This document shows, piece by piece, positions 156 through 44,263 of a stretch of DNA of 63,147 bases. Source of the stretch: Candidatus Micrarchaeota archaeon (GTDB lineage Archaea > Micrarchaeota > Micrarchaeia > Anstonellales > Bilamarchaeaceae); the NCBI GenBank assembly GCA_018812625.1, contig JAHJDH010000012.1:1-63147 (forward strand), read 5' to 3'. Numbering within the stretch: the stretch's first letter is position 1; every line of letters begins with the position of its first letter. The translations under genes and the position numbers were made by a program. A model generated the notes under the pieces. The model ran no database searches. It was not told where the DNA came from and worked only from the letters and a program-made list of their open reading frames with translations.

Positions 156-1376
156 TTAGGATTTGCCTGGAAGCAAGGCACTGAGCACTCCAAGCATCTG
201 CGGTCTTGTTGCAACCACTTTTGCAACTACTCCTGCAAAGTTACCATCCATAACGTGCATAAGGTCAGTATCATTTATGCAATTGAATATGTGGTTAAAG
301 TCATCATCACTGATCTTTTCAGTAACTTTTCGAAGAAGAAGTCTCTTATCAACTGTTGAGCCAGGCTCAATTCTCCACTGCTTTTCATATTCAAAGAGAG
401 TTTCCTTGCTGTAATCTTTCTTTTCCTTTGCCTTAATTGCGACCTTTGCAGCCATGATCCCAGTTTGCATTGCAAGTCCTATTCCACCGCCGTGAATTGG
501 ATCAACTTGTTTTGCTGCAGTTCCAATAACCATACAATTATCCTTTACGAATTCGTTGATTGGAGCTCCGACTGAAATAACCCCGCCAAAATCAAGAAGG
601 CTGCTTGAATCTTTTAGCTGATCATGATCCTGAATAAATCTATCGAGGTACTCTTTTGGAGTTGCACCTTTCATTCCGCCTCTTTTTTCACCACTTTCAA
701 GCTGCCCGCCAATACCAATACCAACATTTGCCTTTCGGTGTGATTTTGGGAAAATCCAAACATAGCCTCGTGGGGCAATTGCATTTCCAAAGTACAATTC
801 AATCAAGTTCTCATGATCATATGGCTTCATTTCATACTGGTAGCATGTATCAACATCATAGAGCTGATGCACTGTTTTGAATCCCATATCTCTTGCCATA
901 AATGATTCCATACCCTCGGCAGAAACGATTAATGGAGCATGAACTTCATACGAATCTCTTCCGCCGTGGCTAAGCTTTACTCCGTTTGGTTTTCCATGCT
1001 CATCCCTGAGAACTTCAGTTGCTCTGGTGTATGTTTTTACCTTTGCTCCTTTATTGATTGCAAGCTCGCAAAGCCATTTGTCAAATATCTTTCTCTCAAG
1101 AACATACCCCTTGGTATCCTCAGTTTTCCAGACTATTGATTTTCCGTTTGGAGCAATCACTTTAGCCCCGTCAACTTGTGTGGAATAGCATTCTCGTGGA
1201 ATATCAAGCCCTTCTTTGATCAAATCTCCGACTCCAAGTCCTTCTCCGCATCTGACCGGCACTCCTATCTCTTTCCTCTTGTCAACTACAAGAACGTCCA
1301 GTCCAGCACCTGCTGCAATTCTGGCAAAACTGCTTCCTGCTGGTCCTCCTCCAATAACAATTACATCGTGATCCAT
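156..1376 (-). CDS. Geranylgeranyl reductase family (digeranylgeranylglycerophospholipid reductase)
   Basis: [11 protein letters not shown] Rossmann motif, [24 protein letters not shown]. Start moved to MDHDV (1376) because the longer ORF overlaps the ferredoxin. Confidence 0.9.
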
Positions 1377-1377
1377 G

Positions 1378-1587
1378 TTAATCATCCTTTGGCAGGTCTG
1401 CACAATTTTTGATGCCTTTATGTAGGCAAATAACATTTGCAGGACATACCCGTACACACAATCCACAGTCAATGCATTTCTCTGGATAATGCTGTATCCT
1501 AGTTCCAACTGCTTCAAGTGCATTCACTGGACATACTGATGAACATCCAACACAAAAGATACAGCCTTCATGCTTAATAGTAATCAT
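1378..1587 (-). CDS. 2x[4Fe-4S] ferredoxin
   Basis: CIFCVGCSSVCP and CIDCGLCVRVCP; directly upstream of GGR. Confidence 0.93.
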   Translation of the reverse strand: MITIKHEGCIFCVGCSSVCPVNALEAVGTRIQHYPEKCIDCGLCVRVCPANVICLHKGIKNCADLPKDD

Positions 1588-1619
1588 AGGACTTCATCTA
1601 TTAACAAAATAATTAAAAT

Positions 1620-2135
1620 CTAATCTTTGAGCATTTTGATGATTTCACTTGCAAAATTGCCTGCACTTTGTGGGCTATCGCCTGTAATTATCTTTCCGCT
1701 AACAATTACTGGTTTTGCCTTATAGAGCGCTCCTCCTGCTCGAAGTGCTTCTAATCCATTTTTACTTGGGTAAACTGTTGCTACTTTTTCAGACAAAATT
1801 CCTGCCTTGGCAAGTGTCATTGGTCCAAGACATATCGCTGCAATGATCTTTCCTGCTTTGTATGCATTTGCAATAAGTTCAACAACTTCCTTTGTTTCTG
1901 CCAGTTTTGGTGATCCCGGGCCTCCAATAACTACATAACAATCAAAGTACTCTGGATTTGCTTCAAAAAATGCCATATCTGGCAGAATGGTTCCTCCCAT
2001 TGATCCTGTTGCCTTTGATCTGCTTGAGCTTGCAACCTTAACAACATGTCCTTCTTTCTCCAGCATTTCCTTTGGAACTAACAGCTCTTCGTCTCTAAAG
2101 CCCTCCTGAGCGACTATCATAAGCACTTTTGACAT
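1620..2135 (-). CDS. DJ-1/PfpI family protein
   Basis: GFRDEE, VIGGPGS, AAICLGP nucleophile elbow. Confidence 0.9.
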   Translation of the reverse strand: MSKVLMIVAQEGFRDEELLVPKEMLEKEGHVVKVASSSRSKATGSMGGTILPDMAFFEANPEYFDCYVVIGGPGSPKLAETKEVVELIANAYKAGKIIAAICLGPMTLAKAGILSEKVATVYPSKNGLEALRAGGALYKAKPVIVSGKIITGDSPQSAGNFASEIIKMLKD

Positions 2136-36174: not shown

Positions 36175-36582
36175 TCAGACGCACTCTTTGGCAATACCAT
36201 CCATGAAAGCTCTTCCTTTTGCACTGAGCACTCTTCCTTGTTTTTCTTTTACAAGGAATCCTGCCTTTTCTAGTTGTTGCATTGCCTTTCTGATTGTAGA
36301 TCCGCCTGCATCAACGTGTTTTTCGGGTCTTACTCCCCTTCTCTTTCTTCCACCATAATGCTTTCGGAGCTTTTGAACTCCAACAGAATTGTGGACATAT
36401 ATTTGTCTGAGAACGGATGCACATCGAACATACCAGAAATCATCATCCTCTGGTGGTCTTTCTGCATGAGCCCCACTCTTAACAATGCCAACGAATGTTG
36501 GCTTCTCTATCTTCATCTCTTTCAATTTCAAAGCTGCATTTTCAATGAGCTTATTTGCTTCTACGTCAAATACTGTGACCAT
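36175..36582 (-). CDS. rps19e: 30S ribosomal protein S19e
   Basis: VKSGAHAERPP, WYVRCASVLR, GGSTIRKAMQQLE. Confidence 0.96.
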   Translation of the reverse strand: MVTVFDVEANKLIENAALKLKEMKIEKPTFVGIVKSGAHAERPPEDDDFWYVRCASVLRQIYVHNSVGVQKLRKHYGGRKRRGVRPEKHVDAGGSTIRKAMQQLEKAGFLVKEKQGRVLSAKGRAFMDGIAKECV

Positions 36583-36724
36583 GTATACACCTTACCTTGT
36601 TGAAACCCATGGTTTTAAATGTAAAATTTGGATGCAACGGTATCACTTTGGTATATACAATACTATTAAAAGCTATCTTTCGAGCCATCTGGGGTTTAAA
36701 ACTCTTCTTTTGAAAGAAACTTGT

Positions 36725-37375
36725 ATGTCTTATTATGGAGTTTATATTATTGGCAGATCATTTGCTACTATAAATGCAGAGCCTGGAAAAAAGGTCTACG
36801 GTGAGAAGCTGAGCAAAAAGGATGGGAAAGAATTTCGCCAATGGGATGCATTTCGAAGCAAACTCTGTGGTGCCATGAAAAAAGGCCTCAAAACATTTCC
36901 ATTTACAAGCGGAAGCAAAATTCTTTATCTTGGAGCATCTACAGGAACTACTATCTCTCATCTTTCTGATATTGTAGGCGTGGAAGGCGAAATTTATTCA
37001 GTTGAGATAGCCCATCAGTGCATGAAACTTTTTCTAAAAAATATGGAGAATCGTGAAAATGTCATTCCAATCCATGCCAATGCCAAAAAACCTGAGGAGT
37101 ATGAAGAGGTTGGGCAGGTTGAGATTATTTATCAGGATGTTGCGCAGCCTGATCAGGACGATATACTAATCCGAAATGCCAAAATGTTTTTGAAGCCTGG
37201 AGGAATTGCAATGTTTTGCATCAAAAGCCAAAGTATTGATGTAACAAAACCTCCAGACGTTGTGTTTTCCGAGGTTATAGCAAAACTTGAGGAGCATTTC
37301 GAGGTTTTGGAAAAAATGAAGCTTGAGCCCTATGATAAGGACCATCTTTTTGTGGTTCTCAAGTATAAAGGCTAG
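36725..37375 (+). CDS. flpA: Fibrillarin-like rRNA/tRNA 2'-O-methyltransferase
   Basis: PGKKVYGE, RQWDAFRSKL, LYLGASTGTTISHLSD, QDVAQPDQ. Start at ATG 36725. Confidence 0.95.
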   Translation: MSYYGVYIIGRSFATINAEPGKKVYGEKLSKKDGKEFRQWDAFRSKLCGAMKKGLKTFPFTSGSKILYLGASTGTTISHLSDIVGVEGEIYSVEIAHQCMKLFLKNMENRENVIPIHANAKKPEEYEEVGQVEIIYQDVAQPDQDDILIRNAKMFLKPGGIAMFCIKSQSIDVTKPPDVVFSEVIAKLEEHFEVLEKMKLEPYDKDHLFVVLKYKG

Positions 37376-37406
37376 ATTTATATTATTTAACTGGGTAATT
37401 TTATAC

Positions 37407-37509
37407 GGGGCAGACTGTCGGAAAGTGATACTTTCGCACATAGACCTCTTGGTCTTGGTGGCAAAATTTGTGTGTAACTTTTCGTACAGCGCTTCGGCGT
37501 TGCTGCCCC
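37407..37509 (+). ncRNA. Unclassified 103-nt structured RNA candidate
   Basis: GC-rich island between convergent genes. 7-bp terminal stem GGGGCAG/CTGCCCC, C(UUCG)G hairpin, two more hairpins, TATA-like TTTATATT ~25-30 nt upstream, T-rich tail. Strand is inferred. Confidence 0.5.
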
Positions 37510-37513
37510 TATT

Positions 37514-37945
37514 TTAAAATTTTGTTAGCATCAGCCCTGTTTTTTTATCTTTTTCTCTTCTGATCTGAGTTTCAAGAGGAAGCAATATTATCTCGCAGGT
37601 AGGCCCGACAATTCCGTTAACTAAATGTCCTCCTAATGTAGAAAAGTCAGACTTTCCAAGAACTATGTGGATATGTGCTATGTGTTTCTCTTCTGCCGTT
37701 GAAATATTGCCAGTCATGGAAGCAATCTCAAACATGCCCTCAAACATTCCCGATCCGTATTTTGCATAAACAGTGTCATAATGGGCAATTTCCACATTTT
37801 TCAGCGAACCAATGCCAGATAGATATGCACTTTTGATATTTTCTGCTTTGCAGACTTCTATTACTGATTTTTGGATTTCGTCTCCTTGATCCAGTCTTAT
37901 TACAACTTCATATTCTCCTTTTTTCCACTGCATATCTTGTTTCAC
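37514..37945 (-). CDS. PPC domain (DUF296) protein
   Basis: VIRLDQGDEI, SGIGSL, FEIASMTGNIS, HIHIVLG, GGHL, PTCEI. Confidence 0.9.
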   Translation of the reverse strand: MKQDMQWKKGEYEVVIRLDQGDEIQKSVIEVCKAENIKSAYLSGIGSLKNVEIAHYDTVYAKYGSGMFEGMFEIASMTGNISTAEEKHIAHIHIVLGKSDFSTLGGHLVNGIVGPTCEIILLPLETQIRREKDKKTGLMLTKF

Positions 37946-39973: not shown

Positions 39974-40048
39974 GCTGCGTTCGTCTAGTCCGGTCAAGGA
40001 TTGTGGACTTTCACTCCATCGACCTGGGTTCGAATCCCAGACGCAGCA
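39974..40048 (+). tRNA. tRNA-Glu(UUC)
   Basis: Acceptor GCTGCGT/ACGCAGC, anticodon stem GTGGA/TCCAT with TTC at 40010-40012, T-arm CTGGG-TTCGAAT-CCCAG. No encoded CCA; begins immediately after the tmk stop. Confidence 0.96.
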
Positions 40049-43896: not shown

Positions 43897-44152
43897 GTGG
43901 GCTTCCCGGTTAGCTTTTAGCAAACATACAAGGAGCCAACCCAATCCACTCAATCCTGGATCTTACAAGCATGGAATAAAATGTTTAGGGCTGCTTCTTT
44001 CGATCTGACCCGGTTCACACAGTATCCCACCATATAAGGCAGGACGTCAACGCTTCAAGAGGCTGGGCATGCATATTTACCAAAACGCCCCGGGCATTCG
44101 AGTCACCTAAGGGGATTTGTGAAGCCGGGACCCCTAGCCCCGCTCTAGCCCA
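43896..44152 (-). ncRNA. ffs: Signal recognition particle (7S) RNA
   Basis: Helix 8 GGGUCAG-AUC-GAAA-GA-AGCAGCCC (SRP54 motif), helix 1 UGGGCU/AGCCCA, Alu loop-loop UAGGGG/CCCCUUA, long helix 5, TTTAAAA box ~25 nt upstream. Confidence 0.92.
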
Positions 44153-44263
44153 TTAATATAATGCAATTGGCGCTTTTAAATTATGCTGCTAGGAGCGAAG
44201 AGTGGTAAACTACTAATGCCAAAGACCCAATATTGTTTCGCTCTGCTTCTTTTAGTGTTTACT

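Follow-up and report, generated by a model that had tools for sequence, protein, structure and literature searches.

The stretch of DNA analysed here, which we call the window, comprises positions 1 to 63,147 of contig JAHJDH010000012.1 (assembly GCA_018812625.1; 63,147 nucleotides, nt) and belongs to a genome of the Ca. Bilamarchaeum group (Micrarchaeota). Between the gene for fibrillarin and a convergent gene for a PCC-domain protein, the forward strand contains a sequence of about 103 nt (37407-37509) in which an original prediction, made from the sequence alone, had seen a lineage-specific non-coding RNA, or a mimic of a tRNA, with its own promoter. The comparative analysis confirmed that this sequence is a real gene for a structured RNA, predicted to be transcribed from its own promoter. 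The RNA starts 31 nt past the stop codon of fibrillarin (TAG, 37373-37375) and ends 4 nt ahead of the stop of the PCC-domain gene (37514-37516). The features of the locus are collected in Table 1.

Structure and promoter of the RNA gene

When the 103-nt stretch was folded by itself, the minimum free energy (MFE) was -42.5 kcal/mol, against -27.8 +/- 3.3 in shuffled sequences (z = -4.5), and none of 200 shuffles was as good. Its G+C content is 51%, compared with 40.6% across the window. The minus strand folds strongly too (z = -4.2), and therefore the strand had to be settled by comparing homologues. These were searched for by BLAST and by two covariance models (CMs; R1 and R2) in 40 species genomes of the same GTDB genus, where the genome studied here is designated G000. 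Among the eight versions of the RNA that were folded singly, seven gave z-scores from -2.2 to -4.5 (-2.2 to -3.8 for the homologues other than this one). The same structure was obtained from RNAalifold with eight sequences and from a CM-guided alignment of 12 sequences, to which the counts given below refer.

The comparison supports a predicted fold in the form of a three-way junction, made of P1, a long arm with P2, P3 and P4, and a hairpin of 3 base pairs (bp) with a UUCG loop, P5. Standard pairs occupy 95.7% of the 347 cells of the alignment that belong to this structure, against 88.9 +/- 0.8% in shuffles, and changes on both sides were observed in 13 of the 29 pairs, where shuffles gave 5.3 +/- 1.5; the observed values were reached by none of 500 shuffles. 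In control structures, in which the 3' partner was slid by 1-3 columns, only 34-58% of the cells were paired. On the other strand the 44 G-U cells become A-C, and the pairing falls from 95.7% to 83.0%. Together, the G-U cells, the UUCG loop and the promoter fix the plus strand as the one that is read.

A search for homologues and for covariation had been proposed along with the original prediction, and the 12 sequences with their 13 compensatory pairs bore out a conserved structure but corrected the fold. All the strings that had been named are present, including CAGCGC-TTCG-GCGTTG at 37487-37502 and TGT-CG-GAAAGT-GAT-ACTTTC-GC-ACA at 37416-37440. The closing stem GGGGCAG/CTGCCCC lies exactly where it had been placed and is the conserved P1, with compensatory changes in four of its seven pairs (CAG/CUG, CGG/CCG, UGG/CCA, GGA../..UCC). 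The hairpin AGACC-TCTT-GGTCT was found as well, conserved as P4, although one base away from the position implied for it. P4 is a clean hairpin in 10 of the 12 homologues, with a possible UCC/GGA stem in an eleventh (G011), and is missing in the 92-nt version of G035; its sequences differ (AGACA/UGUCU, AGAUC/GAUCU, GGCCC/GGGCC, GCCCC/GGGGC) and its loop of 3-6 nt is not conserved. By contrast, the first hairpin of the prediction (GAAAGT/ACTTTC) exists in this genome and its close kin only. In the G+C-rich group of homologues the corresponding bases find no local partner; the 5' strand covaries instead with 37477-37489, on the other side of P2. This long-range helix (P2a and P2b, 10 modelled pairs) shows compensatory changes in seven of its ten pairs and is 97.5% paired.

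The 6-bp stem that had been likened to the T stem of a tRNA held in its inner part, CGC-UUCG-GCG, which is P5, while its outer bases belong to the covarying P2a. Position 37488, an A here, covaries with 37416 (U-A in two sequences, A-U in one, G-C in seven and G-U in two) and not with the base opposite to it in the T-like stem. The stacking of this stem directly on the closing stem, from which an acceptor and T geometry had been deduced, is peculiar to this genome; in most homologues A-U-G stands unpaired between P5 and P1.

P3 is present in 12 of 12 sequences, carries a G-U wobble in 11 of them and has undergone one compensatory change, from C-G to U-A, in G035. On its 5' side, the J2b/3 bulge is unpaired in the consensus and semi-conserved, reading UUAGAUU in the G+C-rich group and GAACUAUU or GAUACUUU in the A+T-rich group, and it is possible that it works as a hinge. 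Neither K-turn nor hammerhead nor other junction motifs were seen on inspection of the RNA, and Rfam was negative.

The sequences of P1, P2 and P4 vary freely while the pairs are kept. What remains fixed is the junction A, the (A/U)UG strand, P5, both strands of P3 and the loop GUGGCAA, which is identical in 11 of the 12 homologues (CUCGCAA in G020), unpaired in the consensus fold and placed in a terminal loop in G035. Part of this loop, GUGGCA, is complementary to UGCYRC, formed by J5/1 and the inner part of the 3' strand of P1, and the pairing is possible in 11 of the 12 sequences. All the variation found there is compatible with wobble pairs, yet there is no compensatory change and shuffles do equally well. 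Forcing this helix costs +7 to +20 kcal/mol in 10 of 11 versions (+2.5 in the short G035). For these reasons a switch between two states in equilibrium was rejected, and the pairing may possibly represent an intermediate of folding or a contact in the tertiary structure. The 5' strand of P3 (UUGC-g-CAC) is another potential partner of GUGGCAA, and single-sequence folding prefers this arrangement in the G+C-rich group. The alternative inner helix was discarded because G020 breaks it and its pairing is weak in G000, G013 and L099, while P3 holds throughout.

The RNA also contains an internal repeat (37430-37440 and 37479-37489) of UUNCGCAC-like strings, which read ACTTTCGCACA and ACTTTTCGTACA here; UUCCGCAC occurs twice in G013. 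One copy lies at J2b/3-P3 and the other in the 3' strands of P2, and there are hints of an old internal duplication within the RNA.

As for the promoter, the upstream element TTTATATT pointed out in the original prediction proved to be kept at a near-fixed distance in the homologues. All the complete ones have an A/T-rich, TATA-like 8-mer (TTTATATT, TTTATATA, TTTAAATC, TTTTTATA/T or TATTTATT) 21-23 nt upstream of the first G, at about -31 to -22 overall and at -30..-23 in most; the box is weaker in G035 (TTTCAATT) and clear in all the others. Directly 5' of it, a purine-rich stretch of the ACAAA type, similar to a B recognition element (BRE), was found in five homologues, and in most of them a pyrimidine precedes the starting G. 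The box is kept whichever gene lies upstream, be it fibrillarin, a member of one of two families of 327 and 255 amino acid residues (aa) described below, or an open reading frame (ORF) of 93 aa. In archaeal promoters, the TATA box is centred near -26/-27, with the BRE upstream of it. The promoter position is strong evidence for a predicted independent start of transcription at the first base of P1 (37407). The locus combines what is generally expected of an independent archaeal RNA gene, namely a purine start preceded at about 26 nt by a conserved TATA box, and a structure under selection, from which transcription is predicted.

In the G+C-rich homologues L067, L069 and L075, conservation extends over some 35 nt ahead of the TATA box (GAC.T.TGCCG.A....CGT.ACAAA..TTTATAT) despite differing upstream genes; this stretch may be an extended promoter or the site of a regulator. 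At the other end of the gene, the T-rich tail TATTTTAAAATTTTG, which had been described together with the location between two convergent stop codons, is present and likely to be an archaeal termination signal. T-runs directly follow the RNA in the A+T-rich homologues and in L079, and are weaker or located later in the G+C-rich ones.

Table 1. The RNA gene, its structural elements and the adjoining genes (positions in the window)
Feature	Position	Strand	Description
RNA gene	37407..37509	+	three-way junction with five helices; basis: MFE z-score, covariation in 12 homologues, no Rfam match
TATA box of the RNA gene, TTTATATT	37377..37384	+	-30..-23 from the first G
P1	GGGGCAG 37407-37413 / CTGCCCC 37503-37509	+	closing stem of 7 bp, G+C-rich
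Junction A	37414	+	invariant (A8); forms the junction with J5/1
P2a	CTGT 37415-37418 / 37486-37489	+	long-range helix
Bulge T37485	37485	+	on the 3' strand between P2a and P2b
P2b	CGGAAAGT 37419-37426 / 37477-37484	+	long-range helix
J2b/3	GATACTTT 37427-37434	+	asymmetric bulge of 5-9 nt, 5' strand
P3	CGCACA 37435-37440 / TGTGTG 37469-37474	+	both strands nearly invariant
P4 (variable hairpin)	AGACC-TCTT-GGTCT 37442-37455	+	compensatory changes; treated by the CM as an insertion
J4/3	37456-37468	+	single strand of 12-16 nt; holds GTGGCAA 37458-37464
P5	CGC-TTCG-GCG 37490-37499	+	3 bp and UUCG tetraloop; 100% paired, almost invariant
J5/1	37500-37502	+	TTG here, ATG in most homologues; (A/U)UG kept in 12 of 12
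T-rich tail, TATTTTAAAATTTTG	37510..37524	+	predicted archaeal termination signal
Fibrillarin gene	36725..37375	+	upstream neighbour; Pfam PF01269, E = 3e-78, from residue 82 of a 296-aa ORF
PCC-domain gene	37514..37945	-	convergent downstream neighbour, followed by pyrI and pyrB; Pfam matches (PF03479)

Distribution and genomic surroundings

The RNA is carried by 11 of the 40 genomes of the genus. An A+T-rich group of carriers comprises G000, G002, G001 (where it is cut by a contig end), G013, G031 and G020, and a G+C-rich group G021, G033, G011 and G006; G035 has the shortened version mentioned above. A pattern scan of metagenomes gave 24 matches, three of which were true (L079, L099 and the partial L092). 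Weak matches in G017 and G005, also of this genus, were rejected, as they were read as coding sequence. In this genome the RNA is present in a single copy, and no paralogue was found by CM, nhmmer --max or short-word BLAST.

Outside the genus, a CM search with fast filters found no homologue in the 125 genomes of other genera among the 151 genomes of the order, nor did a CM search with sensitive filters in 24 genomes of 11 other families. A pattern scan across GTDB returned only the known Micrarchaeia contigs and chance matches in bacterial DNA of high G+C content, and a loose pattern scan of viral contigs gave chance matches only. As far as these searches reach, the RNA appears to be restricted to part of one genus of Micrarchaeota, and literature searches found no description of such an RNA. 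The part of the original prediction that spoke of a lineage-specific non-coding RNA with its own promoter is strongly supported by this distribution, together with the promoter, the covariation and the lack of an Rfam match. Loci L036-L063, all from this single GTDB genus, differ widely in their G+C content (0.36-0.39 vs 0.53-0.60), and the RNA is found in both kinds.

The order fibrillarin, PCC-domain gene, pyrI, pyrB is kept across the genus, but what lies between fibrillarin and the PCC-domain gene is highly variable. This slot (37376-37513 in the window; loci L036-L063, L065-L069, L075, L076, L079 and L099) ranges from about 30 bp to more than 2 kilobases. In seven genomes the two genes abut, leaving no room for the RNA; in others, the slot holds one or more of four kinds of cargo, namely members of the 255-aa family, members of the 327-aa family, a protein with FHA and caspase domains (L099) and putative acetyltransferases, the last read from sequence only. 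The adjacency of the RNA to fibrillarin is thus a case of conserved synteny around a variable slot, and not evidence of a functional link. In a coarse tree of pyrI (143 columns), G024, which lacks the RNA, groups inside the clade of G000, G002, G013 and G031, and it has a 255-aa gene in place of the RNA. This indicates that the RNA was probably lost or replaced in G024, and since this genome is nested among carriers, the RNA looks dispensable.

With regard to the flanking gene itself, the 80-residue N-terminal part of the 296-aa fibrillarin ORF (36485-36724) seems to be non-coding and overlaps an ORF on the minus strand. The true start is likely to be Met81 at 36725, which gives a protein of about 216 aa, as in the relatives. 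No nop5 gene adjoins fibrillarin.

The two protein families of the slot deserve separate mention. The 255-aa family (244-263 aa; L069:3714-4475(+), L067:2627-3406(-), L075:4310-5101(-), L079:239-1021(-), L039:101-835(+)) carries the motif hG[GS]x9-10DxD, similar to that of nucleotidyltransferases, and was detected by tblastn in at least 12 genomes of the genus. The 327-aa family (326-333 aa; L067:3655-4656(-), L075:5305-6285(-), L076:4819-5802(-)) starts with M..PKENL.LHFDFG.H, and its gene is often found immediately upstream of the one for the 255-aa protein; in G164 and G022 the stop and start codons of this pair overlap. The RNA gene is located between the two in G021 and G006. Neither family has a Pfam match, and a search of 5.8 billion proteins with the 255-aa member of G033 returned only the query itself. 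The AlphaFold model of the 255-aa protein is poor (predicted local distance difference test, pLDDT, 55), and the structures retrieved with it by Foldseek are almost all nucleotidyltransferases of the Pol-beta type (ANT, the MNT antitoxin, AadA, TUTases), none of them significant (best E = 0.08). In metagenome contig L099, the same slot encodes a 377-aa protein with FHA and caspase (Peptidase_C14) domains (862-1995(-)), a pair that is typical of conflict or signalling systems.

The 255-aa gene adjoins the RNA, with spacers of 44-77 nt, in four of the 13 carrier loci (G033, G021, G006 and L079). In the genome studied here, tblastn found no homologue of the 255-aa or the 327-aa family. Because the 255-aa gene is equally common without the RNA and is absent from G000, no functional link is proposed. 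For the two families in general, a functional link to the RNA was rejected in view of the lack of Pfam matches and of homologues in this genome, an adjacency that is not enriched and the poor structure model.

Possible functions of the RNA

We hold, with about even confidence, that the locus is an independent gene whose product is a small, compact non-coding RNA of a new family, which would act in trans by binding a specific partner through P3 and the conserved loop. Transcription by the archaeal RNA polymerase would begin at the first G (37407), directed by the TATA/BRE-type promoter at -30..-23, and the transcript would probably end at the T-runs just past 37509. In the predicted fold, P1 locks both ends of the molecule, the long bent arm (P2a, P2b, bulge and P3) finishes in P4 and the single strand, and the very stable P5 closes the junction. 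What appears to be selected is the three-dimensional fold, along with a small number of exact sequences, i.e. the junction A, (A/U)UG, P3 with its G-U wobble and GUGGCAA, a conservation pattern that seems to fit a recognised three-dimensional surface. The RNA would then most likely serve in trans as a binding platform, whose partner would probably be a protein, a small ligand being less likely; P3 and the conserved loop would make the contact, and the remaining helices would act as scaffold. The fixed pattern of P3, junction and GUGGCAA is what led us to prefer a structured RNA that binds a partner over an antisense seed on an arbitrary scaffold. Furthermore, the location in a hypervariable slot and the absence from a genome nested among carriers suggest an accessory function, and not a part of the core machinery of translation or RNA processing.

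Several observations weigh against this proposal. The 92-nt version of G035, which lacks P4, folds no better than chance (z = -0.67). The full sequences are only 12 and fall into two main groups, and shared ancestry accounts for part of the covariation signal. In addition, GUGGCAA is complementary to two other conserved segments of the RNA, and its conservation could be purely intramolecular; the loop could equally be an antisense seed. Finally, no gene is consistently linked to the RNA: the 255-aa gene, beside it in 4 of 13 loci, is also present in 9 of about 23 loci without the RNA.

An antisense regulator acting in trans, in which the single strand (U)GUGGCAA(AAUUUG) would be a seed on a stable scaffold and would pair with one or several mRNAs, altering their translation or stability, seems to us rather unlikely. 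It is true that the only long conserved single-stranded segment is apical, and lies in a terminal loop in G035, and that a single-copy gene with its own promoter is typical of small RNA genes. However, the invariant part is just 7 nt long, and the conservation of the two strands of P3 and of the junction bases would not be needed in a mere scaffold for a seed. Besides, the genome has 547 sites that are complementary to the seed (as 12-mers, with G-U pairs admitted), a figure within the 182-1015 obtained with shuffled seeds, which means no enrichment, and the best complement found by BLAST (20 of 22 nt) lies in an A-rich, low-complexity contig end. It has also to be considered that the RNA could belong to an accessory module, possibly one of conflict or defence, housed in the slot, for example as substrate, cofactor or antidote of the nucleotidyltransferase-like 255-aa protein. 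The very diverse cargo of the slot across the genus, the four loci in which the RNA adjoins the 255-aa gene and the mostly Pol-beta-type Foldseek matches, weak as they are, would agree with such a module. We nevertheless regard it as improbable, given that this genome carries the RNA without either neighbour family, that the 255-aa gene is no rarer where the RNA is lacking than where it is present, that the gene order is not fixed (the neighbour of the RNA lies upstream in L079 and downstream elsewhere) and that the model and its best structural match are of the low quality described above.

A role in cis would make the RNA a structure for 3' processing, stabilisation or termination of the fibrillarin mRNA, or a unit of promoter and structure from which read-through would yield antisense RNA to the convergent PCC-pyrI-pyrB operon. 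The closeness of both stop codons and the terminator-like succession of P1 and T-runs speak for this explanation, which we find very improbable: many relatives have fibrillarin and the PCC-domain gene abutting, and G021, G006, G011, L079 and L099 have genes between the RNA and fibrillarin or the PCC-domain gene, with promoter and fold kept. Moreover, a simple terminator scan finds none here, and a fold of five helices with a conserved junction and loop far exceeds what a terminator needs. Two further explanations have hardly any probability. One is a functionless relic, the decaying fragment of an RNA gene or of a mobile element, as the patchy distribution, the variable slot and the shortened G035 version, with its folding at chance level, might suggest; 13 compensatory pairs and a promoter at a near-fixed distance, in loci differing by about 20% in G+C, point instead to continuing purifying selection, and neither paralogues nor repeats were found. 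The other is the tRNA mimic of the original prediction, or an aberrant, intron-bearing tRNA. The 7-bp terminal stem with its compensatory changes, a size near that of intron-bearing pre-tRNAs, the 6-bp stem that abuts P1 in this genome only and the abundance here of intron-bearing tRNAs overlooked by simple scans are in its favour. Nonetheless, ARAGORN (with or without introns, at the normal threshold) and the Rfam tRNA model find nothing in any homologue, and a lowered ARAGORN threshold gave only inconsistent calls in two of eight versions, in which anticodons and introns varied. A UUCRA T-loop, a D-arm and an anticodon arm of 5 bp and 7 nt are all missing; attempts to thread T and D arms by hand failed; the 5' region is part of the long-range P2 instead, and the P4 loops are of 3-6 nt and variable. 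Between P5 and P1 stand three unpaired bases, neither the 6-bp stem next to P1 nor the base that follows P1 is conserved, and the gene encodes no CCA. The tRNA reading can be considered largely refuted.

Returning to an RNA that binds a partner in trans, we may ask in what kind of system it would take part. It is a quite unlikely possibility that an undescribed accessory ribonucleoprotein or conflict system of DPANN archaea has this RNA as its nucleic-acid component. The RNA would be carried in a hypervariable hotspot of the chromosome, and a lineage-specific protein, not necessarily an adjacent one, would recognise GUGGCAA and P3; alternatively, where the neighbouring nucleotidyltransferase-like family is present, its members would recognise, tail or sense the RNA. 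The genomes of Micrarchaeota and other DPANN archaea are very small, and to our knowledge almost nothing is known of the non-coding RNAs that they encode besides the universal ones. The additional, well-supported RNA gene is a concrete, testable handle on a new interaction, RNA-protein or RNA-RNA, of an episymbiotic archaeon, and the family is worth adding to annotation pipelines, although its narrow distribution and dispensability moderate the weight of the finding.

Comparison with known RNAs

The original prediction could not match the RNA to tRNA, 5S rRNA, RNase P RNA, box C/D or box H/ACA RNAs, and had proposed Rfam as a check; family models and motif searches agreed with it in every case. 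At gathering thresholds, Rfam 15 found in the whole window only a tRNA-Glu (39974-40048) and the RNA of the signal recognition particle (SRP; 43897-44153, minus strand). A permissive search (E<=10) of 37300-37600 gave noise only, with E from 1.3 to 8.5 and 9-16 bits against gathering scores of 40-60, and the permissive scan of 10 homologous loci gave no match overlapping the RNA. These results suggest a new RNA family without detectable relatives, a statement that refers to the family and not to a mechanism.

This genome encodes its 5S rRNA (C33:43797-43911, 70 bits) and its RNase P RNA (C23:48362-48627) elsewhere, which makes the candidate an additional RNA; 5S rRNA was found in 30 of 31 relatives. 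A divergent 5S, RNase P or SRP RNA, or a split-off helix 6 of the latter, was rejected because all three are encoded elsewhere and no motif is shared. The RNase P RNA (266 nt) falls below the Rfam gathering threshold (79.6 vs 84 bits), and for the 257-nt SRP RNA the highest score came from the bacterial large-SRP model and not from its archaeal counterpart. Like 5S rRNA, the new RNA joins a terminal stem, a long arm and a second arm in a three-way junction, within about 100-120 nt; however, the 5S model does not match it, the lengths of the junction strands differ, and its second arm is a mere 3-bp tetraloop hairpin.

Regarding the guide RNAs, the 12-sequence alignment contains no conserved C (RUGAUGA) or D (CUGA) box, and the weak C/D matches of Rfam (E 0.4 to 9.5) all lie outside the RNA. 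The three bases after P1 are never ACA (UAU, UUU, CUA, AAU, AUC, CAC, CUC, ACU or AUU), the loops are strongly asymmetric, and the H/ACA models of Rfam gave no plus-strand match over the RNA, their sole match (E = 7.4) being on the minus strand. Nor does the locus look like a riboswitch or a 5' leader, as the next gene is convergent here and in the other A+T-rich homologues; in G033, the downstream gene on the same strand appears to have a TATA-like box of its own.

The RNA resembles Y RNAs in its size (about 100 nt), in the long stem that pairs its ends and in its conserved internal or apical single-stranded parts. Its string ACGGUCGGAAGG is superficially similar to the sequence GGUCCGAAGG of vertebrate Y RNAs, but it is absent from the G+C-rich homologues, and Rfam gives no match. 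The TROVE/Ro protein (PF05731) was not found in the 40 genomes of the genus, while Deinococcus and Bacteroides controls were positive, and a Y-RNA system is excluded on this ground. With tRNAs, the RNA shares a G+C-rich 7-bp stem joining the 5' and 3' ends, a length of about 100 nt and an independent gene that seems to have its own promoter; it differs in the missing T-loop, D-arm and anticodon arm, with a conserved P5 of 3 bp and a UUCG tetraloop. As to the tRNA genes proper, ARAGORN found 11 without introns and 26 with introns of up to 120 nt in the whole genome, several of the predicted introns being 68-99 nt long. In this genome, which is 85% complete, the tRNAs for Met, Trp, Phe, Val, Ile, Asp, Cys and Gln are among those not detected by ARAGORN, which suggests that it has many unusual tRNA genes.

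RNAs of the HgcC/E/F/G type are encoded by orphan genes for G+C-rich structured RNAs in A+T-rich archaea. The comparison with them was made through Rfam only, where no match to those families was found; the RNA described here occurs, moreover, in one part of a genus only, and in G+C-rich relatives as well. What it has in common with the Hgc type is that of a small, G+C-rich and strongly folded RNA, predicted to be transcribed independently, which stands out in an A+T-rich genome.

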